Assembly (NCBI GenBank): GCA_963711845.1
Contig: CAVQFR010000014.1
Span: forward strand, 73,644-137,643
DNA: 64,000 nucleotides
Direction of reading: 5' to 3'
From: an uncultured delta proteobacterium
Lineage (GTDB): Bacteria; Desulfobacterota; BSN033; UBA1163
In this document: positions 15,031 through 56,250 of the stretch, piece after piece
How the letters are laid out: every line of letters starts with the position of its first letter
Numbering within the stretch: the stretch's first letter is position 1
Made by a program: the position numbers and the translations under genes
The notes under the pieces: model-generated
What the model saw: only the letters and a program-made list of their open reading frames with translations
What the model was told of the DNA's origin: nothing
Database searches by the model: none

Positions 15031-15079
15031 CCCCTCACCCTTCCCCTCTCCCCAGCGGGAGAGGGTGGGAGTGAGGGGG
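15031..15079. repeat. GC-rich palindromic repeat, copy 1 (CCCCTCACCCTTCCCCTCTCCCC / GGGAGAGGGTGGGAGTGAGGGGG)
   Basis: Read directly; immediately 3' of the peroxidase gene; related copies at 28669, 36175, 46536, 56160. Confidence 0.6.
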
Positions 15080-15083
15080 TCAT

Positions 15084-16484
15084 CTAAAGTTGGCGCATAA
15101 AAGCCACAAGATCCCTCTTCTCCTGCTCGCTCAGTTTGAGCTCAAGAATCAAATTGAAAAACTCCACCGTATCTTCCAACGTCAGGAGCCTTCCATCATG
15201 CAAGTAAGGAGGGGAATCTTTAATCCCTCGCAAAGGAAAGGTCTTGATGGGGCCATCTGCAGAGGCATATCTCCCATTAATCATCCGCGGTTTAAAGAAA
15301 CGTTCACCCTTCAAGTTGTGCATCAGATTATCGGTATAGTAGGGAGCTGGATGACAGCTTCCGCAAGCAGCTTTGCCGAAGAAGAGTACCTGCCCCCGCA
15401 TTTCCGGTTGGGTTGCCTTTTTCGGATCAAGCTTTCCGTCGATCCCAAGCTTAGGAGCCGGCGGAAAGTCCAGCAACGCCTGGAACTCCGCCATAAAATG
15501 GACCTGGCTCCCCCGCTCCAGGATGTTGACCCCTTTTTTCGTAGCAATCACCGGGTCGCCGTCAAAATATGCAGCCCTTTGTTCAAATTCGGTGAAGTCT
15601 TCGACCGACTTCAAAGCTCGCTGCGACCCAAACAGCCGCTGGATGTTCACACCCCGTAAACTAGGGGTATCCAGACGATGCCGGAATTCCTGGGGCCGGA
15701 TATCCCCAACAAGGTGTGTCGAGGCATTGGTATGTCCGTTTGCATGGCAGTCAAAACAGACGACCCCACGGCTTGGACGCTCGGACCGCCGGTCCTCGGT
15801 TTGGTTGAACTGCTGTTGCGGGAACGGGGTGACCAGTAGCCTCAGGCCTTCAATCTGCTTGGGGTTTAGAACTCCATTGAACAGCGCATAGTAGTTATCA
15901 AGAGTGACCAGTTTCCCCTGCGAAACATCTCCTAGGTCAGATCTCGTGGTCAGATAGATCGGTGCTGGGAACTCAGGAATCAAGTGATCCGGTAAGTCAT
16001 AATCCAGGTCAAAGCGCGTGAGGTCCCGACCTTCTTGCTTCTTGATCTCATCAATATGGAACTTGGGAAAGAGCATGCCCCCTTCAGGATGATTAGGATG
16101 CGGGAGCGGGAAAAAACCCGCCGGGAATACGCCCTTCTCGCGAATCTCCTCCGGACTCATTCCGGCCAATCTCTCCCAAGTCATCCCCCCTGGAAGTTTC
16201 GCACGAACGCCCTCCTGAACAGCCTTGCCGCGAGACATCGTCACCCCTGCGGCCGGACGGTTACTCAGGTCATAGCGCTCACTAAGCAAATCCATCTGAC
16301 GCTTCATCACCCCTGGCTTTGCAGCTTTCATCCGGGTCATGATCGCTTCAAAACTCTCTTTGATCACCACGGGAGAGTAACTCGACTCTCCTCTTGAAGG
16401 AGATTGGGCAAAAGTAGAAATCGAAACAATAATCAATGAGAGAGTCACACTTGCCAATCCAATGTATTTTATCGCCTTTGACAT
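15084..16484 (-). CDS. di-heme cytochrome c peroxidase family protein with long N-terminal extension
   Basis: 466-aa ORF, signal peptide, two CxxCH heme motifs (CFDCH, CGSCH) and CCP-like C-terminal motif SPPYLHDGRLLTLEDTVEFF; roughly 240 aa precede the first heme site. Confidence 0.75.
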   Translation of the reverse strand: MSKAIKYIGLASVTLSLIIVSISTFAQSPSRGESSYSPVVIKESFEAIMTRMKAAKPGVMKRQMDLLSERYDLSNRPAAGVTMSRGKAVQEGVRAKLPGGMTWERLAGMSPEEIREKGVFPAGFFPLPHPNHPEGGMLFPKFHIDEIKKQEGRDLTRFDLDYDLPDHLIPEFPAPIYLTTRSDLGDVSQGKLVTLDNYYALFNGVLNPKQIEGLRLLVTPFPQQQFNQTEDRRSERPSRGVVCFDCHANGHTNASTHLVGDIRPQEFRHRLDTPSLRGVNIQRLFGSQRALKSVEDFTEFEQRAAYFDGDPVIATKKGVNILERGSQVHFMAEFQALLDFPPAPKLGIDGKLDPKKATQPEMRGQVLFFGKAACGSCHPAPYYTDNLMHNLKGERFFKPRMINGRYASADGPIKTFPLRGIKDSPPYLHDGRLLTLEDTVEFFNLILELKLSEQEKRDLVAFMRQL

Positions 16485-16923
16485 TTTTCTTAACCTCCCT
16501 TTTATGGAATTTTTCAGGAACTGAGATTCACCTTCTTCTTCTCATGATCCCACTGCCAGCCATCTGATCCTATGAAAATACCTGCACACACCAAATAGAT
16601 TAGTATCTACGGCATTCCCGGGTGAATAGGGCAAACACTGTATTTTTCTTGAAGAAGGACAGTATTTTGAGACTAATGGGAATAAAACGATTTTGTGGAA
16701 TATCCGAGGGGATCCAATTTTCAAGAAACATTCCTCGCCCTTGACGGCGAACGATCGTACCGGGTGATGATTACCCCGAGCATCATCTTGTTTGATTTTC
16801 TAAATGATTTTTTCTCGACGTCGTTTTTCCTTGGGTTTAAGAATTCCCCCTCTTTGCTTCCATCTCTGTTTTTCCTTCATCTCCATCTCTCGATTCATCA
16901 CACCCGCCCTTTCAGGAGAATTT

Positions 16924-17136
16924 TCATCTTGAGGATTTTCGAGGTTTCATCTTGGAAACGATTCCATAAGTGCTTTTATAGATATCTATCCATTGATCCC
17001 TGAATTTTTCATAATTTAATGTTTCATTTTTTTCTGACTTAAGCAGCTCAAGAACAAGGTAACAAGAAGCAAGATTTGAAGAAATAACAACACTTCTCAG
17101 TTCATTGAGTTCCGGTGACAAGGGTTTTAAATCCAT
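16924..17136 (-). CDS. hypothetical small protein
   Basis: 70-aa ORF with canonical SD AAGGAGG 6 nt upstream of ATG; located in AT-rich islet. Confidence 0.4.
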   Translation of the reverse strand: MDLKPLSPELNELRSVVISSNLASCYLVLELLKSEKNETLNYEKFRDQWIDIYKSTYGIVSKMKPRKSSR

Positions 17137-17367
17137 ACTGAACCTCCTTTACTTATTAGATTATTTTTTTCTTTCCCTTCATCCCTTGATCCACTATTCT
17201 CCCCTTTTTCGAAAAACTCCTCCTTCGTGAATATCCCTTACTCACCAACTAACCCAGCATGGGCTTCCGGGCGGACGACCAGAAGCATGGGAAGTTCTTC
17301 AAAGGAAACGGCTTGGGGGTGTTAGGAGGCATTCCCACGGCGAGCCTCCACAGAATCGATGTGAAAA

Positions 17368-17700
17368 TTATCCTTTATCACAGCCAAAATATTTAAATAG
17401 GCCGCTCACATAGTTCCCCCATGTTGGAATCAATCTATCAATTTCGTATGACAGCAGAGTTATCTCTCCGCTATGAATCTTATTGTGTACCTCCTCCAGC
17501 TTCTCATATCTCAAAGGCCATGTCATTTTTCCGGATTGATTAACCACATAGAAAGTTTTTTGCCTCTCGTCAATTCCGACGATTCGCAATTGGTTAAGGC
17601 CATCTGCAGCCCAGAATTTTATATCCTGATCCTTCATTTCCTTTAATTTTTCCCAACTAAACAAGCACTTCGGAATAATCTCTATGATTTTCATCATCAT
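17368..17700 (-). CDS. hypothetical protein
   Basis: 110-aa ORF, AGGAG upstream of start; AT-rich context; no recognisable family. Confidence 0.4.
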   Translation of the reverse strand: MMMKIIEIIPKCLFSWEKLKEMKDQDIKFWAADGLNQLRIVGIDERQKTFYVVNQSGKMTWPLRYEKLEEVHNKIHSGEITLLSYEIDRLIPTWGNYVSGLFKYFGCDKG

Positions 17701-17726
17701 CCCCTTTTATTCTCCTAGGCCTTCCT

Positions 17727-17845
17727 GTGGAGCCCCACGGGCAAAGCCCGTGGCACCTGACTAACGCCCGAGAGGGGCGACATCCCGGCCAAAAGTTGGC
17801 GCATTCATCCACGGCCAAAGGCCGTGGCTTTCTGCTGCCGGGGTA
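17727..17845. repeat. dispersed ~120-bp hairpin-rich repeat, copy A
   Basis: gtggagccccacgggcaaagcccgtgg...ggcgcattcatccacggccaaaggccgtgg...ccggggta; about 85-90% identical by eye to 51967..52086. Confidence 0.65.
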
Positions 17846-18174
17846 GACCGTCTACCTCGCAAAGAGCGAAGCCGATTTCCTATCATCGATGATCAACAGA
17901 TTCCCCGGGTTATTCTCCTCAGCAGCCTTTTTCTCCGAATCGTCACAGCGACACCAACCGTCCTGGTTCTTTTCTGCACTCTCGCAACGTTCTGCGTTTC
18001 CTTCCAGTCTAATAGCTTAGGGGAGGCAGAGGGCTTCAGCCTTAATGGAAGTGTATTAGAGCAAGAACACTGCGTCAATAAGAATTGGAAGAATGGAAGG
18101 GTGGCTACCTCCAAATTCCATGACCTTACATCGCGTGGCTGGGCAGGCGAAGACCTGTACTCCTTTGAAATTAT

Positions 18175-18249
18175 TGGAGGCGGCAATCGGATTTGAACCG
18201 ATGAATAACGGTTTTGCAGACCGTCGCCTTACCACTTGGCTATGCCGCC
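18175..18249 (-). tRNA. tRNA-Cys (anticodon GCA)
   Basis: Reverse complement GGCGGCATAGCCAAGTGGTAAGGCGACGGTCTGCAAAACCGT...ATCGGTTCAAATCCGATTGCCGCCTCCA; acceptor stem pairs perfectly, discriminator U, CCA encoded. Confidence 0.9.
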
Positions 18250-18251
18250 CT

Positions 18252-18326
<75 letters not shown>

Positions 18327-18348
18327 ATCTTGTCTTTTCAATGGTTAA

Positions 18349-18377
18349 AAATTACAAGATTTGCCCCTCGATGTCAA
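18349..18377 (-). promoter_or_regulatory. candidate sigma70-type promoter for tRNA-Gly/Cys (TTGACA-N17-TAATTT on minus strand)
   Basis: Minus-strand sequence ttgacatcgaggggcaaatcttgtaattt about 22 nt upstream of tRNA-Gly 5' end. Confidence 0.4.
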
Positions 18378-18418
18378 TAGGGAAAAGAAAAGATGGGGAG
18401 ATGAAAAGATGTAAGAAT

Positions 18419-18955
18419 TCAGGCAATGATGGACTTCAGATATTTCCGGAAATAGTCAGCCCCGGATATAACGGCAACGACCAAAGCAACCCATAGAAAA
18501 ACCATCCCAATCGGATGGAAATCAACGGAAAAATACCTCCCATTGAGGATAAGAAAGAAGATGGACGTCATTTCGAAAACCGTTTTATATTTTCCCAAAT
18601 TACTCGCAGAAATAACAATATTTTGAGTGACGGCAATCCCTCTTAAACCGGTAATGGCGATCTCCCTTCCGACAATGACAATGACCATCCAGTCAGGAAT
18701 CTCTCTCGCTGGAATGAGTGCGATCAGAGCCGTCACGATCAGAAGCTTGTCCGCAAGGGGATCAAGAAATTTCCCCAAGGTCGTTTCCATGCCACGCCGT
18801 CGTGCGAGATATCCATCGAAGGTATCCGTAACAGCGGCTCCAAGAAAGAGCAGCGCCGTGAAGAATTGATACCCCCTGCCCGTATAAGAAAGGAGAACAA
18901 GGATAAGAGGAATGGCCAAGATCCTGAGGATGGTTACCCCATTGGGTAGACTCAT
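18419..18955 (-). CDS. pgsA: CDP-diacylglycerol--glycerol-3-phosphate 3-phosphatidyltransferase
   Basis: CDP-alcohol phosphatidyltransferase motif DTFDGYLARRRGMETTLGKFLDPLADK; membrane protein; followed by tRNA-Gly/tRNA-Cys as in the E. coli pgsA-glyW-cysT arrangement; start probably internal Met (MSLPNGVTILR). Confidence 0.85.
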   Translation of the reverse strand: MSLPNGVTILRILAIPLILVLLSYTGRGYQFFTALLFLGAAVTDTFDGYLARRRGMETTLGKFLDPLADKLLIVTALIALIPAREIPDWMVIVIVGREIAITGLRGIAVTQNIVISASNLGKYKTVFEMTSIFFLILNGRYFSVDFHPIGMVFLWVALVVAVISGADYFRKYLKSIIA

Positions 18956-19028
18956 GATCTGCCGGTAATTGAGTTTTTCCACAGAGGGATTATACTACCT
19001 GATTGATTTCTCGGCAAGCTTTTAAAAA

Positions 19029-19652
19029 TTAAGGTCGATAGGATTGATAATAGCTTAACACTTTTTTGACGTAATCCACGGTTTCCCGATACGGAGGGAT
19101 CGAACGTACCTCGGCAACGATATTCTCACCGGCATTATAGGCGGCTATGGAGAGCCGAAGATCATCATTAAAAAGGGAAAGGAGATACTTAAAATATCTT
19201 ACTCCCCCTTCAATATTTTCTCTGGGATTGAAACTGTTCGAAACATTGAGCCGCGAAGCGGTCTCCGGCATCAGTTGCATCAACCCCTTTGCTCCTTTTC
19301 TTGAGACCGCAGCGGGGTTGAATCCTGACTCTGCCCGGATGATTGCCTTGATCAACGCAAAATCCACCTGGTATTTCTTAGAAAACTCCGAAATGAGTGA
19401 GTCGTATTGATTCGAATCTCTTATGTACGAAAAGGAGGAGTTTCCACCTCCAACATCTTCTTTGCTCTCCCGGATGTAGAGCTTAAATTTGGGGTCTCTC
19501 GGGCAGTTGGTGAAATGAATGACCCCATTTTCATCTTCGTAACGATAAATCCCCGCTGACGAGGGCAGGGGCAGGAAAAATATGCAAAATAAAATCAATA
19601 GAGTGACAATGTAATTCATTAAATTTCGATTCCCAATGTCAATATTGGCCAA
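19029..19652 (-). CDS. lytic transglycosylase (SLT domain) with N-terminal membrane/signal segment
   Basis: SLT catalytic motif ESGFNPAAVSRKGAKGLMQLMPETA and AYNAG. Confidence 0.8.
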   Translation of the reverse strand: MANIDIGNRNLMNYIVTLLILFCIFFLPLPSSAGIYRYEDENGVIHFTNCPRDPKFKLYIRESKEDVGGGNSSFSYIRDSNQYDSLISEFSKKYQVDFALIKAIIRAESGFNPAAVSRKGAKGLMQLMPETASRLNVSNSFNPRENIEGGVRYFKYLLSLFNDDLRLSIAAYNAGENIVAEVRSIPPYRETVDYVKKVLSYYQSYRP

Positions 19653-19963
19653 AAACTACCATAACTTGTCACTTCTGTCAACGAAATTCTAGTCTCAAGG
19701 TATTTAGAAATTTTCTCAACCTAATGAAATCAAAGGATATTTGTGAATTTTTCTGAAATATACCTTGATAGAATAGTGCAATCTCTATGCCCATTGGCCG
19801 GCAAGCGCCCCATCTTGCCAAAGTGGGATAGGCAGGGTCCCTGCCTACCGACCCCGGTCCCAATCGAGGGCAGGGAAGACAGAATTCTCGCTTTTTCCTG
19901 AAGATTGTCGAGCGGGGTATATAGGTATAGGCAGCAGGACAAACAAAGAGGGTACGGCGTTCT

Positions 19964-22900
19964 TTAAGCCCCCTTTTTAATCGTCCACCGGCGTCGGATC
20001 CAGCCACCGAAATCGTCGAGAACCGAATACATCACCGGTACAATGAGAAGTGTCAAAAAGGTGGATGTGATCAACCCGCCGACCACTGCACGAGCCATAG
20101 GTGCCCGCATCTCCGCTCCCGCGCCGAGCGCCAAGGCCAGGGGAAGCATTCCGAAGATCATGGCCAGGGTGGTCATCAGGATGGGACGAAGTCTCGTTCG
20201 GCCTGCGGTAATGATTGCCTCCGTGCGATCCATGCCCCGGGAGCGCAGCACCTTGGCAAAGTCGACGAGCAGGATGGCATTCTTTGTCACGAGACCCATC
20301 AGCATCATGAGGCCGATGAGGGACATCATGCTGATCGTATCGCCTGTGAGCCAGAGCATCGTTGCCATCCCGATCAGAGAAAGGGGCAATGAGAGCATGA
20401 TCGAGAGGGGGTCGATAAACGATTCAAACTGGGCTGCCAAAATAAGATAAACGAGGATGATGGCCAGGATGAGAGCCTCTGCCATGTATCCCAATGATTC
20501 TGTCATTTGCTCGGCTTCTCCAGAAAAAAATACCCGGTATCCAGGAGGCATCCTGATGAGGGAGGCAGCCTGGCCTACCTTTTCTATGGCCGTCCCCAGA
20601 GGGAGATTGTCGAGGTTTGCAGAAACCACAACCTGACGAGTCAGGTCCTGCCGGTCGATCTCCGAAGGAGTGGGCTTGATGGAGTAGGTGACCAGTTCGC
20701 CCAGTGGAATGAGTGTGGGTCCATTCCCCGGTTTTTGAACGGCCAGTCTGAGTTTTTCAACATGGGATAGATCTTGCCTGAGAGTGTCCGGGAGTCTGAC
20801 GCGAACGTTCACCGCGTCGCCGTCCTCATCTTCATAGGTGGTGACCGCTTGCCCGCCCACCAATGCGCCCACCGTCCGCACGATGTGGCCCGTCGTGATT
20901 CCCACGTCAAAAGCCCGCTCCCGGTCGACCGTCAAACGGTACTCTGGGATGTCCTGCTCCAGGGTAACCTCGATGTCGACGATGCCCGGAATCTGGTACA
21001 TCTTCTCCTTTAAAGCCGCAGCATATTTCTTGAGAAGGGAAATATCATCCCCCCGGATATTGACGAGAAGGGGTTTCCGGGTATCCATCCTCCCCGCCTC
21101 CGTGATGAAGGGCAGGATGCCGGGAATCTTCTGGAGAAGGCGACGGGTCTCCTCTTGGATCGCTTTCTGTGAACGCCTTCTCTCGTTGCGGTCCGCCAGC
21201 TTGACATAAACTTTCGCATCGCGGACGGTTCCCTGGTCGCCTGCTCCAATCGTGGCATAGGTATGTTGAACCTCGGGGATCTCTTTCAGCGAAGTCAAAA
21301 CAGCATGGACTCTTCCCCGGGTCTCATCCACGGAGGCATCCGGGGCGGTCGTGAAGTTGACTTCGAATTCTCCCTGGTCGTACCCGGGCACGAACTCGCT
21401 CTGGAGAAAAAACTTGAAGACCACCAGACCGCCTACAAGCGAGAGGACTGCGATCAGGAGGACTGTCCTGCGGTGTTTCAGAGTCCAGGCGATAACGATG
21501 CGGTATTGATCCGCGGTTCGATCAAACCAGTTGTTGAATCGGTCAAGAACCCGAGCGACCAGGTGTCTCTTTCCCTTCCGCTCAATATCCGGGTCGACCC
21601 ATCGGGAAGAGAGCATGGGGTCGAGGGTAAATGAAACAAACAAGGAGACGAGAACCGCAAAGGTCACGGTCATCCCGAACTGAAAGAAAAACCGTCCGAT
21701 GATCCCCTTCATAAACGCCACCGGGACGAAAACAGCCACAATGGAGAAAGTCGTCGCTAAAACGGCCAACCCTATTTCACTCGTCCCCTCTCGAGCCGCT
21801 TCGAAGTGATCCTGTCCGCTCTCGAGGTGGCGGACGATGTTCTCCCGGACGACGATGGCATCATCGATGAGGAGTCCTATGGCGAGGGAGAGCGCCATCA
21901 GGGTCAACACATTCAGTGTCATTCCCAGGAAGTTCATGACGATAAACGATGAGATAACCGAGATGGGAAGTGTCAGGCCCGTAATCACCGTCGAACGCCA
22001 GGAATTGAGGAAAAGGAAAACGATGAAAATGGTCAAAATCCCACCGAGGATGAGCGTGTCCTGAACGTCGCGGACAGAATCACGGATCATGATCGATCCG
22101 TCACGTACAATCTCAATCTTTGTCCCCGGAGGAAGTTCCGACTGAAGTTTAGAAATTTCCTTCTTCACCAGATCCACCGTCCCCACGACGTTTGCTCCGG
22201 ACTGCTTGAGGATGTCAAGGGAGACGGCCTGGACCCCGTTCACAAAAGCCAAGGACCGCTGCTCCTCAATCCCATCCTTAATCTCTGCCACCTCTGAAAG
22301 CATGATGGGACGGCCGTTGCGCTCGCCGATGACCATTGTCTTGAATCGATCCACCGCCTCGGGCTTTCCGGAGACCCGTAAAGGGTATTCGGAGCTGTTC
22401 CGATTGAGCCTGCCGAGAGGGGTGTTGACGTTTTCCGACTGAAGCCCTGCCATCACTTCGTCCACACCCATTCCGAGCGCTTCCAGTCGGAAACGATTAA
22501 TGTTGATGTTCACCTCTCGCTTCGATTGGCCTACCAGGTCGACTTTCCCCACGCCGGAGAGGTTTTCGAAGCGGCGCTGGACCTTCTTCTCGACCAGAGT
22601 CGTCAGGTCTTTGGGAGAGAGAACATCCGAACGTACGGCGAGAGAGACGATGGGTATCGAAGAGAAATCAAGCTTCTGAATGATCGGTTCTTCTATCCCT
22701 TGGGGCAGATCCCCTCGGATGGCGTTGACCTTCGCCCGTGCCTCTTGGGAGGCCTCGTTGATTTTGACCTCTAAGTTGAACTCGACGACTACCAGAGAGA
22801 CACTTTCACGAGAGGTGGAAGTGACATGTTTGACCCCCGAGATCGGATTCACCGCCTCTTCGATCCGCTTCGATACCTCCCTCTCCACCGTCTCGGGTGA

Positions 22901-23062
22901 GGCGCCGGGGTATTTCGTGACGATGGAAAGGATTGGGATCTCCACATCGGGAAACATGTCGATGGCTAAGCGACGATAGGAGAAGATTCCCAGAGTGACC
23001 AATGCCAGCATCATCACGGAGGCGAAGATGGGTCGCTTAATCGACAGATTGGAAAGAAACAT
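19964..23062 (-). CDS. RND efflux transporter permease (AcrB/CzcA superfamily)
   Basis: 1032-aa 12-TM-type ORF with typical RND N-terminus [43 protein letters not shown]. Confidence 0.9.
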
Positions 23063-23066
23063 CTTC

Positions 23067-24230
23067 TCAGCCTCTATTCACCTGGGTGACATTTACCCGA
23101 TCGCCGTCTTTCAGGTTGAACCCACCACGGACAACCACTTGTTCATCGGTTACAAGTCCCGATATAATTTCTACAAAATCCCCCATGATTGCCCCTGTCT
23201 GAACGGTTCGTCGGTTCGCAATCTCTCCCTTCACCACGAAGAGATCTCCTTTCTTTCCAGCCACATCCCAGGAGAGAAGAGCCCCTCGAGGCACCCTAAG
23301 AATGCCCGTCCGTTTTCCTGTGCCAATTCGGCCCTTCACATAGAGGCCCCCCTTCAACTGCTCTGAAACGTTTTTGACCTCGGCCGTTACCTTCACCGAC
23401 CGATCTGATTCATTCACCACAGGGTTGATAAACATCACCTTTCCCGTAAACGTTTCTCCGGGAATAGCATCGGTCGAAAAGGTGAGCGGAAGCCCCACAC
23501 GGACCATACCCATTTCGACCGACGGAACCGTCACCGTTAGATCCAAGATGTGGGTATCAATGATTTTAAACATGATCTTTTGCGAACCCGCCTCTCCGAC
23601 AAGGTCCCCGATATTTACACCTCGGGATGAAACCACACCCTCTATTGGCGAAAGGATGGTCGTCTTGGAAAGCCGGGTCTGGGTGTGACGAAGATCCTCC
23701 TCGGCTGCCCTTAGCTGGGCCCTGGCAGCCTCGATCCGAGCAGCGGATGCCTCTTTTTCAGTCAGCCCGTCATCGAGGGCTTGCTGTGTCACAACCCCGA
23801 GCTCTTTGAGCTTCACCAGGCGACCGTACTCCCGGTTCGCCCGATTTCCCGCCACCTCCGCCTGTAAAAGGGTTGCCTTGGCCATTTCCACAGCAGCACT
23901 GGCCTTCTGTAACAGAATCTCTATTTCTCGTGAATCAATTTTCGCAAGGGGAGTTCCTTTCTTGACCCTGACCCATTCGGTAACATGAACCTCCGTTACG
24001 ATTCCAGCGTATTCAGACCTCACATCTGCCGCGAATTTAGGAGCAAGGGATCCCACCACGTCGATGCCTTCGCTGTGATCCGCCACTTCCACTTTGGCAA
24101 CTTCCACGGCGACAGGGGGACGCCCCCCCTTCTTTTCGTCCGGATTTTTACCTTCCTCCCTGCCGGAACAGCTCGAGAACCCTATGGAGAGAGCAAGCAA
24201 CATGGTTCCAAGCACAAATCTCTGTATCAT
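23067..24230 (-). CDS. RND efflux periplasmic adaptor (membrane fusion protein, HlyD/AcrA family)
   Basis: 387-aa ORF with lipoprotein-like N-terminus (SIGFSSCSG), coiled-coil region and beta-barrel/lipoyl-like segments. Confidence 0.85.
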   Translation of the reverse strand: MIQRFVLGTMLLALSIGFSSCSGREEGKNPDEKKGGRPPVAVEVAKVEVADHSEGIDVVGSLAPKFAADVRSEYAGIVTEVHVTEWVRVKKGTPLAKIDSREIEILLQKASAAVEMAKATLLQAEVAGNRANREYGRLVKLKELGVVTQQALDDGLTEKEASAARIEAARAQLRAAEEDLRHTQTRLSKTTILSPIEGVVSSRGVNIGDLVGEAGSQKIMFKIIDTHILDLTVTVPSVEMGMVRVGLPLTFSTDAIPGETFTGKVMFINPVVNESDRSVKVTAEVKNVSEQLKGGLYVKGRIGTGKRTGILRVPRGALLSWDVAGKKGDLFVVKGEIANRRTVQTGAIMGDFVEIISGLVTDEQVVVRGGFNLKDGDRVNVTQVNRG

Positions 24231-24323
24231 TTCGTTTCCCCATTCATTTCACTTCGCTAGAAAACACCTGCCCAAAAACGAGAGCCAACATGCGATTAAA
24301 CCCTTTTCAAATTTGAAATTTCT

Positions 24324-25640: not shown

Positions 25641-25644
25641 TGAT

Positions 25645-46533: not shown

Positions 46534-46535
46534 TG

Positions 46536-46574: not shown

Positions 46575-46593
46575 AAATTTCAGATATCTTTGG

Positions 46594-49720: not shown

Positions 49721-50096
49721 TTGGGCCCTTCTCTGCTACCTTGAGCAAGAACCCGGTTATGAGAAGATAATCGACCTCTTCGACAAAGCTGTTGAGTCCT
49801 CCAAGCCTCTCTTAATGTGCATCGTGAACTGGGGAGAGGTTTATTACCAGGTGATGAGGCGGTTTGGAGATCAAAAAGCACAAGAGATTGAGCAGCTCAT
49901 TCAGACCCTACCGATCACACTGATTGAAGCCAATAAAGAAATTACGCGGGAGGCGGCGCGCATAAAAGCCACAAAACGGATGGCCTATGCGGATTGTTTT
50001 GCCGTCGCCCTCGCCCGCCTAAAAAAAGCAGAACTTTATACAGGGGATAATGAGTTCAAAGCCGTGGAGAAAGAAACAAAGATTGTTTGGCTTTAG
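49695..50096 (+). CDS. PIN-domain toxin (VapC-like)
   Basis: PIN acidic residues in VLDSWALL…, AYADCFAVALA, TGDNEF; TTG start overlapping antitoxin 3' end. Confidence 0.7.
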   Translation: MAAAKVLDSWALLCYLEQEPGYEKIIDLFDKAVESSKPLLMCIVNWGEVYYQVMRRFGDQKAQEIEQLIQTLPITLIEANKEITREAARIKATKRMAYADCFAVALARLKKAELYTGDNEFKAVEKETKIVWL

Positions 50097-50404
50097 CGGT
50101 TAAAGTTAGTGTTTGACCTTATAGACACTATAACATTTAGCGTTGATTTCTTCCTGAACTCTTCAAATCCGTACGGACCATATTCATCCAATGTTTCAGG
50201 TGCAAATCACTAAGGCCGTGACCGAACTTCTGATCTCGAATTTCTGATAGGGGAAAATCGGCAATAATCGGTAATAAATGTGACATTTTCCCCTTGACTC
50301 TCATTTCGATTAAGAGTACTTTCAAGTCGTCGTTTCCTGCTGGCCCTTGATTAGACTCAAAACGTCACCCATGACCATTTTGATTGAGGGAAGGAGTTAT
50401 ATAA

Positions 50405-50623
50405 ATGGGCTATGGCAATGAGGTTGACAAAGAAAGAAACTGGATGGCATTAGAGCGGATAGGATTTCATCTGGATGAGGCTATGCGGTTTTGTAAGCAA
50501 CTGGACCTTTCCGGACTCGGCCCGTTAGAGCAAAGAGAATGGGAAACCAGAATGAAGGCCTGCAAAGATGCTATTGAATTTACCAACGAATCAGCCCGGC
50601 AATTGGTTAAGATTCTTGTGTAA
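50405..50623 (+). CDS. hypothetical small protein
   Basis: 72-aa ORF with strong SD (GGAAGGAG) 9 nt upstream of ATG. Confidence 0.45.
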   Translation: MGYGNEVDKERNWMALERIGFHLDEAMRFCKQLDLSGLGPLEQREWETRMKACKDAIEFTNESARQLVKILV

Positions 50624-50778
50624 TTTCTATTTCCCCTAAGCCCCCTTGCCTGTTTTAGACTTCTCCATTCCTTCCTGAAACATTCTCTTCCCCAATTTGT
50701 GAAATGGGTGTATATTACAACTGCACATAGTGGGCGCTATCGATCTCAACGATAACAGAGACACTGCCATTCAGTTAT

Positions 50779-51384
50779 TTGCGCTCGTCAATTCAATTGA
50801 TGTCGGATAAGATGGGAACGAGTCCGGGTATGAGTGAGTCACAAAGCAAGCTGCCTGAGGACGTCGGTATTAGCGTCGAAAGAATGATTCGCTTCTGTTA
50901 CCTTGCGGAGATGCAGTTCGAATATGCCTCCGGCGACACAAAGACCCTGCCCCTTCACTTGACCCGATTTGGCACATTGCTGCTTGAGACTGCCAGCTTT
51001 CTGTACTCCCTCTTCGAAGAGAGACGCGACTCGATCAACTTATTGGATGTCTGGCGGGGCTTTGACCATCCTTTTAGCGAGGAACTTCATGACTGTGTGA
51101 GGAAATTGGATCCATTCAAAAAAGAGCTGCGGCAAGTACGAAATCGCATCGGTTTCCATGGAAGCCTCAATCGAAATCGTGAACGCTCCGGACTCGGCAT
51201 ATTTGATGTTGATAGTTTACGGGTGCATGACTTTGCCCGCCTCATCGGGGAAATGCGGGAACTGTTTCTGCATATGATCGAATGGTATATAAAGAGAATG
51301 GACGAGTCCGCGCGGCCCGATGAGATGTGGAAGGAGTTCGTTGCTGAGCTGAAGGGCCGCTCACGAATCCGGAAGTCATCATGA
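50779..51384 (+). CDS. hypothetical protein (predicted all-helical)
   Basis: About 195-201-aa ORF; start ambiguous (TTG 50779, ATG 50800 or 50812); no recognisable motif. Confidence 0.45.
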   Translation: MRSSIQLMSDKMGTSPGMSESQSKLPEDVGISVERMIRFCYLAEMQFEYASGDTKTLPLHLTRFGTLLLETASFLYSLFEERRDSINLLDVWRGFDHPFSEELHDCVRKLDPFKKELRQVRNRIGFHGSLNRNRERSGLGIFDVDSLRVHDFARLIGEMRELFLHMIEWYIKRMDESARPDEMWKEFVAELKGRSRIRKSS

Positions 51385-51450
51385 CGCTGCCCAATAACGC
51401 GTCTTACCCAACATCCGCGTCAACCGGATCGCCCAAACCGGATAAGATAA

Positions 51451-51708
51451 ATGACCATTCTCTTAGTGTTCTATGTAATCGGTGGCGTAATTGGGGTTTT
51501 GATCAATCTACGCTTTTTCTTGCCAGTGGCATATTTTGATGTGAGGAATGCCTTTGGATTGATTGGGACATTGCAAACCATTGGCTATCAGTTGATACGA
51601 GTCTTAATATTGAGCTGTGTTGCTTTCTTTCTTTCGTGGATTTCTGTTGGCTATTTAGTCATTCACTACGAAAACTTCAAACGTGACCTCGAAAGAATGA
51701 AATTGTAA
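51451..51708 (+). CDS. hypothetical small membrane protein (two predicted TM helices)
   Basis: 85-aa ORF MTILLVFYVIGGVIGVLINL…LIRVLILSCVAFFLSWISVGYLVI; lower GC than core genes. Confidence 0.45.
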   Translation: MTILLVFYVIGGVIGVLINLRFFLPVAYFDVRNAFGLIGTLQTIGYQLIRVLILSCVAFFLSWISVGYLVIHYENFKRDLERMKL

Positions 51709-51966
51709 TCTCTTTCTAACGGAAATCATCAGTCGTTAATGCAGATCGATCCTCGCTCTTTGTAGGTGAAGCGGTTGTCCTGAAAGTCTTTGTCAATTCA
51801 AGTCTTAAGTTTTATAAAGTAAACCGCGTTAGAAAGGGCAGAGCTTTGACACCGCCCTCAATAAGGAGCTGATACTTTCTATTCCACCATCCCCAGCATA
51901 AATGCTGGGGCTTTCTAACGGGGTAAAGCTCTCTGCCCACAGAGTGGGGCATTCTTCATCATTTTC

Positions 51967-52086
51967 GTGGAGCCCCACGGGCATAGCCCGTGGTACCCTA
52001 CTTCACGCCTCAGCGGGGCGACATCCCGGCCAAACGCTGGCGCATTCATCCACGGGCAAAGCCCGTAGCCTTCTGCTGTCGGGGTA
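51967..52086. repeat. dispersed ~120-bp hairpin-rich repeat, copy B
   Basis: gtggagccccacgggcatagcccgtgg…ggcgcattcatccacgggcaaagcccgtag…tcggggta; partial extra copy of the 3' part immediately upstream (about 51905..51960). Confidence 0.65.
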
Positions 52087-52187
52087 AAAGATCTGGTTCA
52101 AAAAATAGGGAGGCTAAAACCCCCATGCCCTCGGGGGTCAGGTGAAAATGGTTCAGATCAATGACGATATCTCACTAAATTTATTAC

Positions 52188-52595
52188 TCATGTTCTTTTG
52201 CTTTTTGATATCTCCCAAAATTCTCTTGGAGTTATGATTGGGACTGAATGGAACTTCTTCAGCACAAGAAGATCCTTATCTCCAGTAATGATGTAATCGG
52301 GTTTGGCTACTTCAGAAAGACCAAGAATTTTGACATCATCAATATCTCTGCAGGCGTCTTTATCTAACCTTTTATGGTCGCTGAATGTACAAAATTCCTT
52401 CAAATATTCAGTGATCATGAGAACCTTATCCTTAGGCATCTTCATTTTTTTCTGTAAATTCCTTTGAACCTCAGATAGGATGTGTTCGCTGATAATGATT
52501 TCATGCTTTTCCAGGCAGAGTTCAAAAAGGGCGTGGGCCAGCCCTCGCCCTGCAAAGGCCGCTAAAATAACATTTGTATCGAGAATTACTCTCAT
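52188..52595 (-). CDS. PIN-domain toxin (VapC-like)
   Basis: MRVILDTNVILAAF…DIDDVKIL…ITGDKDL; 4-bp overlap with upstream antitoxin. Confidence 0.75.
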   Translation of the reverse strand: MRVILDTNVILAAFAGRGLAHALFELCLEKHEIIISEHILSEVQRNLQKKMKMPKDKVLMITEYLKEFCTFSDHKRLDKDACRDIDDVKILGLSEVAKPDYIITGDKDLLVLKKFHSVPIITPREFWEISKSKRT

Positions 52596-52810
52596 GATAC
52601 TTCTTTATAGACATCCTCGTCTGTAAGGATGCCCTGGGCCTCTGCAAAAGGGAGAACCATATTTCGAAGTCTACGAAACCGGTAGATGGCTATATACCTC
52701 TTCAACGATTCTCTAACGAGATCGCTAATGGGTTTCCCCTCTGCCTTACTGATCTCCTGTAATCCCTCTCTTAAATCATCAGGAATTCTGATGGTCAGGG
52801 TCTGATTCAT
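52592..52810 (-). CDS. ribbon-helix-helix (CopG-like) antitoxin
   Basis: MNQTLTIRIPDDLREGLQEISKAEGKPISDLVRESLKRYI; ORF track extends upstream into glyS 3' end, start taken at internal Met. Confidence 0.65.
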   Translation of the reverse strand: MNQTLTIRIPDDLREGLQEISKAEGKPISDLVRESLKRYIAIYRFRRLRNMVLPFAEAQGILTDEDVYKEVS

Positions 52811-52892
52811 ATTCACCCTCCTTTGTAATACAACGTAACACAGACGACGAGATTTGTCAATTCTATTAAAGTTTTCAGACAAAAGGCGGTAA

Positions 52893-54956
52893 TTAGGTGA
52901 GTTTGGAGAAGTCGGCGATTCTGAGGAAGAGTTTTCCGATCTCATCGAGGAGGGCAAGGCGATTGTTTCGGATCTTCTCGTCTTCAACCATCACCATGAC
53001 CCCATCGAAGAATTCATCAATCGGTTTCTTCATCTGGGTCATTTCGAGGAGTGCAGAGGGATAGTCCCTTTTGTTAAGAAGGGAATCGATTTTTTCTTTC
53101 GCCTTGAGAAAAGATTGATAGAGGTTCTGCTCAGCAGATTCAGCAAAGAGGGACGGGTTGATTTCTCCTTTTGGAGGAGACCCCTTCAAGATATTCATCG
53201 CCCGCTTAAAAGCGATCACAATCGACTCAAAATCCTTCCATTCCCTTGCCTTCCTCAGGGCATCAATTCTGCCCTGAACATCCAGCAGCTCATCAAATGA
53301 AATCGAAAGCACAGCGTCGGTCACATCGAAGGCGTATCCCTTGTCTAACAAAAAGTTTTGATAACGGACTCGGAAGAAATCGAGAACGTCATTTCTTACT
53401 TCCTCTACAGGACGTTCCATCTTCTCCTTCAACTGCCCTTCACTCGCTTCGACCAATCCCCTTAAGGAAAGAGAGTACTTTTTTTCAAGGAGGATCCGGA
53501 TGATTCCCAGGGCTTGGCGCCTCAGCCCAAAAGGATCGGCTGTTCCCGTGGGCACGAGACCCACTCCAAAGCAACCCACAATGGTATCCATTTTGTCAGC
53601 GATGCTGACGATATCTCCAACGGGCCCGGAAGGAAGTCGATCTCCTGCAAAAGCGGGAAGGTAGTGCTCGTAAATTGCCTCCGAAACCTCCGGCCTTTCT
53701 TTGGACAAACGGGCATACTCCCTTCCCACAATTCCCTGAAGTTTCGGAAACTCGCCGACCATTCCGGTCACCAAATCGGCTTTGCATAAGTGCGAGGCTC
53801 TTTCAACCGCTTCCTGCAGCTTGGGATCAATTCTTTCTGCCATCCATAAAGCCAATTGTTTAAAACGCATCATCTTCTCATAAGAAGTGCCCAGTTTGGC
53901 CTGAAAAACAACTTTCTTCAATTGCTCCACCCTGGTGTCGAGAGGAATCTTCAGGTCATCTTCAAAGAAGAAAGCCGCATCCGACAGCCTCGCCCTAAGG
54001 ACTCTTTCGTTTCCCTTCACCACGACTTCTCGACTTCTTGGATGAATATTGCTGATGCAGACAAAATGAGGAAGCAAGTTTCCATGGTCATCCACCACGG
54101 GAAAATATCTTTGATGCTCCTTCATCGAATGGATGAGAATCTCCCGAGGAAGCGAAAGAAATTTGCTGTCAAAGGTTCCGCACAAGGCGACCGGATACTC
54201 CACCAGAAAATTGACCTCATTGAGGAGATCCTCATCTTTAAGGATCCTTCCTGAAACTCTGGCCCCTTCTCGAATCATCTCCTCCTCGATCCTTTTCTTC
54301 CGCTCCACAGGGTCCACAATCGCAAAGGCTTCTCTTGTCTTTTGAAGATAGGATTGAAAATCCATCACGGGAATAGGGCCGGAGTGCATGAACCGATGGC
54401 CGAAGGTCATCTTTCCACTTCGGATATTCCCTACCTCGAAAGGAACCACTTCTCCGCCGAAGAGGGCTAATATCCAGTGAATCGGCCTGGCAAATCGAAT
54501 CGGGACATCTGCCCAGCGCATCGATTTCTGGAACGGGATGGAAAGTATCCATTTGGGAAGGAAGGTGGAGAGGAGCTCAAGGGTCGGTCTTCCCGGCTCC
54601 TTCTTCACAGCACAGACATACTCGCCTTTCCCGGTTTCAACCAGGGTCAGGGATTCGACAGGAACGGATTGCCCTTTGGCAAAACCGATGGCCGCTTTCG
54701 TCGGATTTCCTTGGGCATCAAAGGCGGCCTGTTTCGAAGGACCTATCTTTTTGGTTTCTTCATCTCTCTGTTTTTCAGAGACAGCCTCCATCACCAGAAC
54801 GAGGCGTCTCGGAGTCCCAAAAGTTTTTACCCCTTTGAAATCGATCCGGCTTGCCTCCAGTTCTTTTTGGGCGAAGCTCTCCAACCCAATCAAGGCCTGC
54901 GGAACAAACCCGGCCGGAATTTCCTCTGTCCCGATCTCCAATAGAAGTTCCTTCAT
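52893..54956 (-). CDS. glyS: glycine--tRNA ligase beta subunit
   Basis: 687-aa ORF with GlyS N-terminus MKELLLEIGTEEIPAGF and downstream of glyQ. Confidence 0.95.
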   Translation of the reverse strand: MKELLLEIGTEEIPAGFVPQALIGLESFAQKELEASRIDFKGVKTFGTPRRLVLVMEAVSEKQRDEETKKIGPSKQAAFDAQGNPTKAAIGFAKGQSVPVESLTLVETGKGEYVCAVKKEPGRPTLELLSTFLPKWILSIPFQKSMRWADVPIRFARPIHWILALFGGEVVPFEVGNIRSGKMTFGHRFMHSGPIPVMDFQSYLQKTREAFAIVDPVERKKRIEEEMIREGARVSGRILKDEDLLNEVNFLVEYPVALCGTFDSKFLSLPREILIHSMKEHQRYFPVVDDHGNLLPHFVCISNIHPRSREVVVKGNERVLRARLSDAAFFFEDDLKIPLDTRVEQLKKVVFQAKLGTSYEKMMRFKQLALWMAERIDPKLQEAVERASHLCKADLVTGMVGEFPKLQGIVGREYARLSKERPEVSEAIYEHYLPAFAGDRLPSGPVGDIVSIADKMDTIVGCFGVGLVPTGTADPFGLRRQALGIIRILLEKKYSLSLRGLVEASEGQLKEKMERPVEEVRNDVLDFFRVRYQNFLLDKGYAFDVTDAVLSISFDELLDVQGRIDALRKAREWKDFESIVIAFKRAMNILKGSPPKGEINPSLFAESAEQNLYQSFLKAKEKIDSLLNKRDYPSALLEMTQMKKPIDEFFDGVMVMVEDEKIRNNRLALLDEIGKLFLRIADFSKLT

Positions 54957-55039
54957 GCCTGGTCCTTTGTTAGATTTGTAGCGCCCTCATTTATTGAGGG
55001 CGAAGATTTTCGTCGGCATTAAATGCCGACGCTACATCT

Positions 55040-55912
55040 CTATTTGCGGTTTAAAAGCGGAAATCCCATCTCTTCTCTCTGTTTAAGATACCCTTCCGCG
55101 CAGAGTCTTGCCAGCGTCCTCACCCTCAAGATGTACCCTACCCGCTCGGTCACGCTGATCGCGCCCCGCGCATCGAGAAGGTTGAAGACATGGGAGGTCT
55201 TGAGGCAATAGTCGTAAGCCGGGAGGACCAGCCCTTTTTCAACCAACGTCTTCGACTCTTCTTCAAACATCTCAAAGAGACGGAAGAGCATCCCTACGTT
55301 CGCTTCCTCGAAATTGTATCGTGAAAATTCGACTTCGCCCTGGTGATGGATGTCTCCATATTTTACCCCCTTCAGCCATTCCAGGTCATAAACATTATCC
55401 ACCCCCTGAAGATACATGGCGATTCTTTCAGTCCCGTAGGTGATCTCCACCGGGATGGGACTCAGTTCGATACCGCCCACCTGTTGGAAATAGGTGAATT
55501 GGGTGATCTCCATGCCATCCAGCCAGACCTCCCACCCCAGCCCCCACGCACCCAGCGTTGGGGATTCCCAATCGTCTTCGACGAATCGAATATCATGATC
55601 AAGGGGATCGATTCCGAAGGCCTTTAAGCTATTGAGATAGATCTCCTGAATATCAAGAGGGGACGGTTTCATGATCACCTGATATTGATAATAATGTTGA
55701 AGCCTATTGGGATTTTCGCCGTATCGGCCATCGGTGGGACGGCGGGAAGGCTCGACATAGGCCACTCGCCACGGTTCAGGACCTAAGGACCTGAGAAAGG
55801 TCGCAGGGTGAAAAGTCCCGGCCCCCACTTCGGTATCATAGGGCTGTTGAATTACACACCCCTGATCCGCCCAGAATCGCTCCAGGGCAAAAATCAATTC
55901 CTGAAAATTCAT
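55040..55912 (-). CDS. glyQ: glycine--tRNA ligase alpha subunit
   Basis: [48 protein letters not shown]…; highly conserved GlyQ sequence. Confidence 0.95.
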
Positions 55913-56078
55913 CACGCCCCCGTTATTGGCTGATAGCTAATGGCTAATAGCTTATAGCTTTTGTCCAATTGCCGTCTGTTATTTACCAAGAAGCTATGCT
56001 CTGTGTCATCTTCTCTCTTACGGAGCACGGTGTAGCACTTTTGAGTCTCGGATGTCAACACGGTGGTTAACCGTAAAT

Positions 56079-56106
56079 CCGAAATTCGAATATCGAAACT
56101 CGAAAC
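56079..56106. repeat. four tandem heptamers (cCGAAat tCGAAta tCGAAac tCGAAac) upstream of glyQ
   Basis: Read directly in the glyQ 5' intergenic region. Confidence 0.5.
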
Positions 56107-56159
56107 AAATTGTACATGACGGGTTCGTCACCCCCAGACCATGAAAATCTATCTCATTA

Positions 56160-56250
56160 TCCTCCCCCTTGACGGGGGAGGACTAAGGTGGGGGTGGACA
56201 GGATGTGCTCCCCCTCACCCCCACCCTCTCCCGCAAGGGGAGAGGGAGAT
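56160..56250. repeat. GC-rich palindromic repeat, copy 5 (with adjacent CCTCCCCCTTGACGGGGGAGG hairpin)
   Basis: cccctcacccccaccctctcccgcaaggggagaggg. Confidence 0.55.

Follow-up and report, generated by a model that had tools for sequence, protein, structure and literature searches.

BoxC/PIT/TMECO repeats have been known since the 1990s and have been studied as triplex and G-quadruplex DNA; to our knowledge, no origin, function or route of spreading is generally accepted for them. The E. coli pattern is CCCTCNCCC-N3-6-GGGNGAGGG-N3-GGGNGAGGG (Holder et al., NAR 2015, PMC4666352), with earlier work by Bachellier et al. and Hoyne/Maher (cited in PMC4666352). Formation of an intrastrand purine-motif triplex in vitro has been published for the motif, while in vivo footprinting by Holder et al. 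gave no evidence of a stable triplex; the same paper cites earlier work finding no promoter or terminator activity, reports the motif from 262 proteobacterial genomes, and reports no link to mobile elements and no associated mobility genes (PMC4666352). G-quadruplex/hairpin/duplex switch motifs of E. coli have been described as HPG1 and HPG2 (Kaplan et al., NAR 2016, PMC5100583).

The window, meaning the whole 64,000-nt stretch of DNA analysed, contains five loci that we firmly assign as new members of this known family, in an uncultured Deltaproteobacteria/Thermodesulfobacteriota-like genome rather than in E. coli (Table 1). All four exact copies match the TMECO pattern, against 0 expected, two on each strand, and the E. 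coli hrpB-mrcB pair can be aligned with each of the inverted +/- pairs, c5 and c3. The blocks have the same sequence and spacing as in E. coli, and the window copies are likewise strictly intergenic, present in both orientations and as +/- inverted pairs, and, at the three sites compared, found at loci that vary between close relatives. They differ in the second loop, which is GAA or TGG in the window and TTA or CCG in E. coli, and in that two copies have both outer blocks, so that each forms one long hairpin with the motif on both strands.

Repeat units of the window

Table 1. Coordinates of the repeat units and neighbouring gene fragments in the window
Feature	Position	Strand	Description	Sequence	Exact core	TMECO match (strand)
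c1	15031-15079		Nested four-block unit, single long hairpin	CCCCTCACCC-TT-CCCCTCTCCC-CAGC-GGGAGAGGG-TGGGA-GTGAGGGGG	15044-15065	15032-15065 (-)
c2	28670-28718		Nested four-block unit		28682-28704	28682-28716 (+)
c3a	36183-36216	+	Degenerate unit	CTCCCCCCCC-TTTGT-GGGGGAGGG-T-GGGGGCGGG
c3b	36231-36270	-	Degenerate unit, inverted	+ strand: C-rich block, then TCCTCTCCC-ACCG-GGGGAGAGGA
c4	46537-46574	+	Solo three-block unit, 5' outer block missing	CCCCCTCTCCCC-TCAG-GGAGAGGG-GAA-GGGTGAGGGGG	46539-46560	46539-46572 (+)
c5a	56160-56200	+	Variant unit, left half of inverted pair	TCCTCCCCC-TTGAC-GGGGGAGGA-CTAAG-GTGGGGGTGG
c5b	56210-56246	-	Canonical unit, right half of inverted pair	CCCTCTCCC-CTTGC-GGGAGAGGG-TGG-GGGTGAGGGG	56224-56246	56212-56246 (-)
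PPDK duplicate	46406-46533	+	Decayed copy of PPDK 3' coding segment 45667-45794
HAMP-gene remnant	46114-46320	-	Last 68 codons; the 391-aa HAMP-containing gene is intact in relative L255

The core CCCTCTCCC-N4-5-GGGAGAGGG has four exact matches in the window against 0.01 expected from dinucleotide shuffles, and the core with the outer GGGTGAGGGG block is found four times against 0.00 expected. At the four exact loci, the outer blocks CCCTCACCC/GGGTGAGGG stand around the CCCTCTCCC-loop-GGGAGAGGG hairpin, and no additional copy occurs in the window at up to 2 substitutions. The initial annotation had counted at least five palindromic copies with a common core and arms and marked c3 as divergent; four loci show this structure in exact form, and the fifth (c3) is a degenerate inverted pair in which each core is matched only at 2 substitutions. 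The copies take three forms: c1 and c2 are nested hairpins of four blocks, c4 is a single unit of three blocks, and c3 and c5 are inverted pairs.

Folding, computed as Watson-Crick pairing only, gives -41 kcal/mol for the c1 hairpin (z = -3.6 vs shuffled sequence), -45 kcal/mol for c2 (z = -4.7), and -64 kcal/mol for the whole c5 pair (z = -5.3). The c3 pair folds no better than shuffled sequence (z = -0.9); its units do line up in register with those of c5 and of an E. coli BoxC pair. The G-rich strand of the window repeats, GGGAGAGGG-NNN-GGGTGAGGG, is by sequence an HPG1/HPG2-type G-quadruplex (G4) motif with four G3+ tracts, loops of 1-7 nt, and a complementary C-rich block upstream, and these repeats account for 7 of the window's 12 G4-motif loci. 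It differs from HPG1/HPG2 in the sequence of the middle loop.

Distribution, mobility and DUF559 genes

The exact motif is distributed far beyond the 262 genomes of Proteobacteria in the published survey and extends to many phyla and to phage genomes. At least 120 stretches, spread over many phyla, contain the exact 28-base form, as do at least 120 viral contigs, and its flanks are not conserved between taxa.

The motif is also tightly linked to DUF559 nuclease genes. Elsewhere, not in the window, units flank genes for this Vsr-like nuclease almost without exception; in 240 motif-selected loci, all 6 complete DUF559 genes have units within 100 nt, at 11 of their 12 ends, and 4.8% of bases in these loci lie within 100 nt of a unit. 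Among viral contigs, each of the 9 close DUF559 homologues is bordered on both visible sides by hairpins or inverted repeats, most of them TM-like by search pattern and two or three diverged and read by eye, and such borders are found at 0 of 9 distant homologues. The tail ...PPHPNPLPNGERE, which is the translated outer C block, inner C block, loop, and inner G block, ends 106 of 120 DUF559 homologues; it is present in 105 of 134 diverse family representatives, found with a profile that included the repeat-encoded tail and so biased the ranking toward tailed proteins, and in 0-1 of 120 control proteins. The family is large (about 34,000 clusters at 50% identity), and its profile matches the homing endonuclease I-Bth0305I (PDB 3R3P). 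No DUF559 gene was found in the window or in the loci of relatives examined.

Two layouts occur, with the gene either between outer blocks or between inner hairpins. In contigs L345 and L341, a hairpin with an outer G block precedes the gene and an outer C block with a hairpin follows it, the gene taking the place of the pair's spacer. The E. coli DUF559 gene, ycjD, ends within such a hairpin and has a TMECO copy 168 nt downstream. TMECO counts reach 6-15 in E. coli phylogroups D, E, and F, ycjD is single-copy, and most D, E, and F strains carry eefRABCD, not ycjD, at the ycjD locus (PMC12817139), so the E. coli correlation is confounded with phylogeny.

Some loci give evidence of movement. 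Phage contigs L358 and L356 carry a pair element of ~150 nt that L355 and L357 lack, and with its 15-nt perfect inverted end and 7-nt duplicated junction (ATGAACG...ATGACCG) it reads as a clean insertion in this one phage lineage. In L059, a priA-like gene contains a DUF559 unit as an in-frame insertion. In the L146 phage lineage, the terminal sequence of the pair element is common to the flank of a DUF559 gene. The pair form resembles MITEs as an inverted-repeat element of ~90-150 nt, with the perfect inverted ends and duplicated junction in one phage lineage only; it departs from them in that the window copies have no visible duplicated junction and the product of the candidate parent is a nuclease instead of any known transposase.

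We infer from these associations that DUF559 may be the mover of the units. The unit is a G/C-rich sequence of 34-49 nt made of the 9-nt blocks CCCTCNCCC and GGGNGAGGG, and its parent would be a small mobile cassette consisting of a gene for a DUF559 nuclease, which has a Vsr-like PD-(D/E)XK fold, with such units at its ends. A cassette losing this gene would leave an inverted pair or a nested four-block hairpin. Taken as a whole, the statement that the window loci are BoxC/PIT/TMECO copies, that they are selfish insertions, and that they originate from a DUF559 cassette is on balance probable. Its last element, by which the window copies would be non-autonomous remnants of a DUF559-linked mobile cassette, is the most likely origin, with a chance approaching even. 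Its extension to the family at large, with BoxC/TMECO as the ends and gene-less remnants of a pan-bacterial, phage-borne, selfish DUF559 (Vsr-fold) cassette, is a tentative proposal.

The cassette may, by analogy and again tentatively, constitute a repeat-plus-enzyme system like REP/RAYT with a homing-endonuclease-like enzyme, of which the window copies would be dead derivatives. DUF559 resembles free-standing phage homing endonucleases in being a sequence-detectable relative of one of them, the Vsr-fold I-Bth0305I, and in phage L146 a DUF559 gene lies in the terminase-portal spacer, where a related phage has a GIY-YIG nuclease gene. The DUF559 system differs in its GC-rich hairpin ends and gene-less derivatives; for known homing endonuclease genes, we are aware of no description of conserved GC-rich hairpin ends or of thousands of gene-less derivatives.

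The association can also be read in the opposite direction. Some IS elements target REPs, and DUF559 genes may similarly invade pre-existing repeats, the nuclease homing into the spacer of an inverted pair, with the units as its target site and spreading by some other route. The gene in L345 and L341 sits exactly at the place of the pair's spacer, solo units and pairs vastly outnumber DUF559 genes (6 genes in the 240 motif loci), and D, E, and F E. coli keep 6-15 units mostly without ycjD at its locus. We nevertheless judge such invasion unlikely, since 78-88% of family members conserve the unit-encoded tail within their DUF559 reading frame, the pair element of the L146 lineage shares its terminal sequence with a DUF559 gene flank, and both gene layouts occur. 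The priA-like insertion in L059 is a hint of a DUF559 cassette entering a unit-less site, which would speak against invasion.

Spacers, relatives and other possible functions

The proposal of an intergenic GC-rich palindromic family is confirmed for the window, where 5 of 5 loci fall between ORFs judged to be genes (gene map, with Pfam support for part of the genes). For 209 copies taken from phage contigs and other genomes, the longest stop-free stretch that covers the copy ends no more than 150 nt away in ~70-73% of cases, compared with 33-35% of random positions by the same measure. Copy c1 lies between convergent ORFs, 5 nt past the stop of ORF 15084-16484 (-). Copy c2 takes up most of the 74 nt that separate the DUF763 gene (stop 28731) from the next gene (ATG 28654-28656, N-terminus MRFIADFHIHS), both on the - strand and in an apparent operon; it lies 12 nt past the stop codon and 13 nt upstream of the next start. 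The c5 pair lies in the recO-glyQ spacer.

At the three sites comparable with relatives, copies are missing in most or all of the nearest relatives, and all three sites differ between related genomes. In L002, whose encoded RecO is identical, unrelated DNA stands in place of the c5 segment, and c5 is absent in L125 (GlyQ 94% identical) and L123. Relatives L254, L249, and L251 have no c2 in the corresponding spacer. Relatives L282 and L270 have other copies at other positions downstream of PPDK, and L270 has, at a different locus, a pair element with 87% identity to the c5 pair. In the comparable relatives, the entire spacer differs and no clean insertion is seen, nor is a target-site duplication visible at the window copies. 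Being non-coding, intergenic, and present or absent among close relatives, the units point to selfish inserted DNA and not to conserved regulatory signals; family identity together with selfish-insertion behaviour is very probable.

Copy c4 lies in a 900-nt region of gene fragments between PPDK and an acyl-ACP thioesterase gene. The duplicated gene segment noted beside it is real: the PPDK duplicate stops 3 nt short of the unit, and its identity to the source segment is 73% ungapped and 80% gapped, rising to about 89% in the last 64 nt. The HAMP-gene remnant marks a ~1.65-kb deletion with a junction near 46371-46381, about 160 nt from c4, and a synteny break is also present. The initially suggested role in recombination remains circumstantial: c4 lies in this rearranged stretch, and the left part of the PPDK fragment is common to relative L255, so that the duplication is not a recent event attributable to the repeat.

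Very stable hairpins (-41 to -64 kcal/mol), positions of c1 and c2 shortly past stop codons, a terminator role proposed by the Enterobacter 638 authors, and published triplex and G4 formation in vitro would suit host regulatory or structural signals under selection, acting as terminators/attenuators, mRNA 3'-end stabilisers, or triplex/G-quadruplex switches. We consider this quite unlikely, because the same spacers lack copies in close relatives, including the contig with identical RecO, and c2 stands just ahead of the next gene of an apparent operon. Neither c1 nor c2 is among the terminators called in a scan of 14000-30000, their stems being followed by TCATCTAAAG and AATTGTGAAA with no T run, and the published results likewise give no promoter or terminator activity and no stable triplex in vivo (PMC4666352).

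The label of a REP-like family does not hold in the strict sense. The units resemble REP/REPIN elements as short, GC-rich, imperfect extragenic palindromes occurring singly and as inverted doublets, and the REP arrangement, in which repeats border the gene of the presumed mobilising enzyme, is analogous to that of DUF559 elsewhere. They differ in that the GTAG/CGTC tetranucleotide is absent from the flanks of c1-c5, the associated gene elsewhere is a PD-(D/E)XK nuclease, and the same sequence, an exact BoxC/PIT/TMECO match, is conserved across phyla, whereas REPs are lineage- and RAYT-specific. No RAYT/Y1 transposase, other transposase, or integrase domain was found among the 50 window ORFs scanned, a set that excludes PPDK, glyS, the recO-distal block 57251-63951, and ORFs below ~100 aa. 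Mobilisation as classical REP/REPIN elements by a RAYT (IS200/IS605-like Y1 transposase) is thus largely refuted and very improbable. The window separately contains GTAG-tagged REP-like hairpins at 36324-36348 and 54978-55035, which belong to a different family.

A conserved Pro/Gly-rich protein-coding repeat or a chance low-complexity feature has a negligible probability and is refuted for the window: stop codons are rare in the units, ORF lists run through them, and DUF559 genes elsewhere translate them as a C-terminal tail, but the window copies lie outside Pfam-supported domains, beyond an apparent true start (c2 only) or at the tail of an ORF that lacks such support, in differing frames and orientations, and number 4 against 0.01 expected. 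The coding alternative raised in the initial annotation is therefore ruled out here and the repeat is non-coding, while the spurious Pro/Gly-rich extensions it described are evident in the window ORFs. ORF 27403-28734 reads LKFHNSPSPFPSPLRGEGGARGG ahead of the true start MRFIADFHIHS, ORF 14760-15074 terminates ...PHPSPLPSGRGWE*, and ORFs 46395-46604 and 46509-46634 likewise read through a copy.

Significance for the genome and the family

The window has no nuclease gene, and its copies are probably inert. They would give transcripts very stable hairpins and single-stranded DNA potential triplex/G-quadruplex structures, and they would mark fast-turnover spacers. Their practical value in the window lies in annotation, as they produce false Pro/Gly-rich ORF extensions and flag fast-evolving spacers.

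If the cassette origin is true, it would explain the same 34-nt sequence in many phyla and the apparent genomic instability of the sites. DUF559 nuclease genes may explain the spread of the long-puzzling BoxC repeat; if the link is causal, the old question of the motif's origin can be put directly to experimental test, and DUF559, a large family of domains, acquires a role.

Anatomy, family and distribution of the repeats

The five GC-rich palindromic loci of the window (copies 1 to 5) are composed of units of 34-49 nt assembled from 9-nt C and G blocks, and occur in three forms: a nested four-block hairpin (copies 1 and 2), a solo three-block unit (copy 4), and an inverted pair, or pair element (copies 3 and 5). 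The exact core CCCTCTCCC-N3-12-GGGAGAGGG has four matches in the window against 0.01 in dinucleotide shuffles, and adding the outer GGGTGAGGGG block retains all four with 0.00 expected. Allowing two substitutions yields just two extra sites, both within the ranges of the initial annotation, whose GC-rich palindrome family is thus borne out by core enrichment and by direct reading of the five loci.

Repeat copies and an adjoining gene remnant in the window
Feature	Position (strand)	Structure	Folding or basis
Exact cores	15044-15065, 28682-28704, 46539-46560, 56224-56246		pattern search
Extra site	36183-36270	degenerate locus	2-substitution search
Extra site	56160-56182	variant hairpin beside copy 5	2-substitution search
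Copy 1	15031-15079	four blocks (outer C, inner C, loop, inner G, outer G), single long hairpin	-41 kcal/mol, z = -3.6
Copy 2	28670-28718	four blocks, same order as copy 1, single long hairpin	-45 kcal/mol, z = -4.7
Copy 3	36183-36216 (+), 36231-36270 (-)	decayed pair	no better than shuffles, z = -0.9
Copy 4	46537-46574	without 5' outer block	
Copy 5	56160-56200 (+), 56210-56246 (-)	inverted pair; variant unit (+), canonical unit (-)	-64 kcal/mol, z = -5.3
C-terminal remnant	46114-46381 (deletion region)	last 68 codons of 391-aa HAMP-containing gene	gene intact in relative L255

Holder et al. 2015 (PMC4666352), located through full-text searching with the two 9-mers, describe TMECO, formerly BoxC or PIT, as CCCTCNCCC-N3-6-GGGNGAGGG-N3-GGGNGAGGG and list 23 copies in E. 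coli K-12, all intergenic and five of them in +/- pairs. All four exact window copies follow this pattern. Direct reading of the E. coli hrpB-mrcB spacer shows the pair arrangement of copies 5 and 3, and the four pair sequences of this comparison align in register. For the same G-rich strand, Kaplan et al. 2016 (PMC5100583) described a G-quadruplex-hairpin switch, HPG1/HPG2, and 7 of the 12 G4-motif loci of the window fall inside these repeats. Additionally, the Enterobacter 638 genome paper counts 100 hairpins of this kind at the 3' ends of genes, with a guessed terminator role. As these published descriptions show, the BoxC/TMECO family is already known, and we hold with high confidence that the window repeats are members of it and represent non-coding, insertion-polymorphic DNA. 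The local variation consists of second loops reading GAA or TGG and of the nested four-block form. The REP-like label of the initial annotation therefore stands as regards a family of short intergenic palindromes, but not as a name, because the repeats belong to BoxC/TMECO; they are not REPs in the strict sense and have no GTAG/CGTC tag.

Other palindromic sequences accompany these copies. A weak unit-like remnant, CCCGTCCCCTCCCTCAACCC-GGAGGG, possibly a sixth, decayed copy, lies at 2319-2351 in the GntR-family/BKACE gene spacer and doubles as a G4 motif of the - strand. GTAG-tagged palindromes of the classical REP type, a family separate from BoxC/TMECO, are found at 36324-36348 (-), ~55 nt from copy 3, and at 54978-55002 (+) with 55011-55035 (-), the latter forming an inverted, REPIN-like doublet (54978-55035) in the glyS-glyQ spacer. 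A second repeat family comprises ~120-nt copies at 17727-17845 and 51967-52086 (88-89% identical), each carrying two CCACGGSCAAAGSCCGTGG hairpins and both apparently between ORFs, with tRNA-Cys/Gly near one copy and a PIN-domain gene beside the other.

Beyond the window, a representative-genome scan with the exact 28-base pattern returned at least 120 stretches, the matches listed spanning Pseudomonadota, Acidobacteriota, Chloroflexota, Planctomycetota, Omnitrophota, Nitrospirota, Nitrospinota, Elusimicrobiota, Cyanobacteria, Verrucomicrobiota, Bacteroidota, Atribacterota, Myxococcota and others, and viral contigs gave at least 120 matches to the same pattern. Among the matches listed, loops vary across taxa and flanks are unrelated. 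Overlap with long stop-free stretches is uninformative on coding because the motif is itself stop-poor, and the coding-overlap question was judged by a distance-to-edge test, in which 70-73% of the motifs listed lie within 150 nt of the ends of stop-free stretches, compared with 33-35% of random positions. This edge bias fits a gene-end or between-gene location.

Genomic setting and variation among relatives

The window is ordinary chromosome, with ABC transporters, ilvD, an AcrAB-TolC-type efflux operon, pgsA, a PEP synthase, glyQ and recO recognised by Pfam scans; PPDK was named from its translation, and the names of glyS and ftsK come from Pfam hits precomputed for the L001 gene calls. The proteins closest to its GlyQ and DUF763 proteins are named as Deltaproteobacteria, Syntrophales or Thermodesulfobacteriota MAGs (81-86% identity). 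Rfam at gathering thresholds reported three tRNAs only and assigned no RNA family to the repeats, and Pfam scans of 50 window ORFs contained no transposase, integrase, RAYT or DUF559.

All five copies lie between genes, as had been proposed. Copy 1 has convergent ORFs on either side, with a stop codon 5 nt before it, and copy 2 fills the 74-nt spacer from the DUF763 gene to the next same-strand gene; a terminator scan found no T run after either, and the other copies likewise have none behind them. Copies 3 and 5 occupy spacers of 460 and 481 nt, both with co-directional flanking genes, and copy 4 lies within a 900-nt stretch of gene fragments from PPDK to an acyl-ACP thioesterase gene. The ORF readings of the window confirm that ORF extensions through the repeats are spurious, as initially annotated. 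Two divergent PEP-utilising paralogues, a PEP-synthase-like gene (40431-42896, -) and PPDK (43194-46031, +), precede copy 4, and the pseudo-fragment adjoining this copy is derived from PPDK.

Comparison with related contigs indicates rapid turnover at these loci. In the recO-glyQ spacer, L002, which has an identical RecO and comes from another sample, retains near-identical spacer flanks, with the pair-bearing central ~190 nt swapped for ~170 unrelated nt. The corresponding spacer of L125 (GlyQ 94% identical) is 110 nt long without a unit, and that of L123 (88%) carries a different long inverted-repeat element at 9690-9930 (CCCTCAGTTAAGGGGTGG... / ...CTTTAACTGAGGGGTTAC), which suggests that this spacer serves generally as a landing site for small elements. 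At 56352-56372, the window has a 21-nt hairpin-forming indel, GGGCGAAGCATCCCGCAGGGA, that L002 lacks. At the DUF763 spacer of copy 2, three relatives (86-88% identical) all have differing spacers, none with a unit. Downstream of PPDK, L282 has two four-block units and L270 a pair element 87% identical to that of copy 5, at a locus other than that of copy 5; the pair itself is a unit of dispersal. In L282, a four-block unit with ~60 nt of 3' flank is directly repeated at 715-1025 with a period of ~205 nt. The copies are dispersed elements with insertion polymorphism, and the spacers that contain them change fast; no duplicated junction was found at the window copies.

A role in recombination had been proposed for copy 4 from its contact with a duplicated gene segment. 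The region is indeed rearranged: relative to L255 (97% identical), the window has lost ~1.65 kb downstream of PPDK, including a 156-aa gene, and synteny with L123 stops in the PPDK downstream region. However, L255 also has the left part of the PPDK pseudo-fragment, so the fragment predates the split of these genomes. A causal role of the repeats in rearrangement would be consistent with Holder et al. About 2.8 kb at 50096-52893, from glyS to a PIN-domain gene, with small ORFs (a further PIN-domain gene among them) and one copy of the second repeat family, is missing in L125 and L123, where the glyS to PIN-domain gene distance is ~23 and ~260 nt, respectively. At 46594-46936 (-), overlapping ORFs of 76 and 61 aa, which may be a frameshifted gene, lie in DNA kept downstream of PPDK in several relatives.

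Mobility and association with DUF559 genes

The viral contig L146 represents a genuine phage head module in which four spacers contain units, and its terminase-portal spacer holds a gene of DUF559, a family of small Vsr-like nucleases, with units on its flanks. Among related phages, this spacer carries a GIY-YIG nuclease gene in L357 (1915-2232) and the unit-flanked DUF559 gene in L146/L355 (1145-1866). In the L146 lineage, a ~150-nt pair element sits at a stop/start overlap in two contigs and is missing from two. Its inverted ends match perfectly over 15 nt (GCGGCGGTTCCCCTC and GAGGGGAACCGCCGC), its duplicated junction (ATGAACG...ATGACCG) restores both stop and start codon, and its end sequence also borders the DUF559 gene of this lineage. 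In a Gastranaerophilales MAG (L059, 2406-2840), a priA-like helicase ORF contains an in-frame insertion of a ~430-nt unit-DUF559-unit block and stays open throughout, with the Walker A motif following directly.

An iterative protein search of 240 motif-selected loci identified six complete DUF559 genes and one fragment, with 11 of 12 gene ends within 100 nt of a unit, against 4.8% of bases in those loci. In viral contigs, hairpins or inverted repeats flank all nine close homologues on both visible sides, compared with none of nine distant ones; the close-homologue flanks mostly fit a relaxed TM pattern, those of L341, the left of L340/L342 and arguably L343 being diverged and recognised by eye only. 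Furthermore, 106 of the 120 nearest database homologues have ...PPHPNPLPNGERE as their C-terminus, which corresponds to outer C, inner C, loop and inner G read as protein. Among the best 150 representatives of 34,171 clusters, unit-encoded tails occur at the C-terminus in 105 of the 134 with enough C-terminal sequence and at the N-terminus in 34 of 63, against 0-1 of 120 control proteins; as the tail formed part of the search profile, these fractions are upper estimates. As to fold, the DUF559 profile hits PDB 3HRL, with a weaker match to the homing endonuclease I-Bth0305I (3R3P).

In E. coli, the single-copy DUF559 gene ycjD has its 3' end inside a unit-like hairpin (C-terminus ...RRSPSP*), with TMECO number 9 in the numbering of Holder et al. 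located 168 nt downstream of it. The gene is present in 3378 of 5426 E. coli genomes and occupies the site where the eefRABCD operon is missing (PMC12817139). Phylogroups A and B1 have 13-30 units, D, E and F have 6-15 and B2 has 1-2; since the relation of ycjD to TMECO number tracks phylogroup, these data are confounded with ancestry. Holder et al. found no mobility genes near the motif, and our literature search, in which coverage of subscription journals was thin, found nothing tying DUF559 or ycjD to repeats.

A profile search of six-frame translations found no DUF559 in the window or the relatives' loci. The window repeats likely derive from a DUF559-bearing cassette, though this origin is unproven. 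Removing the gene from the two observed cassette layouts would leave an inverted pair and a nested four-block hairpin, exactly both gene-less forms seen in the window. On sequence grounds, DUF559 may be the mover of the units or may merely target them. As the element belongs to a known family, the window finding by itself is of modest interest, and the DUF559 association is the part worth pursuing.
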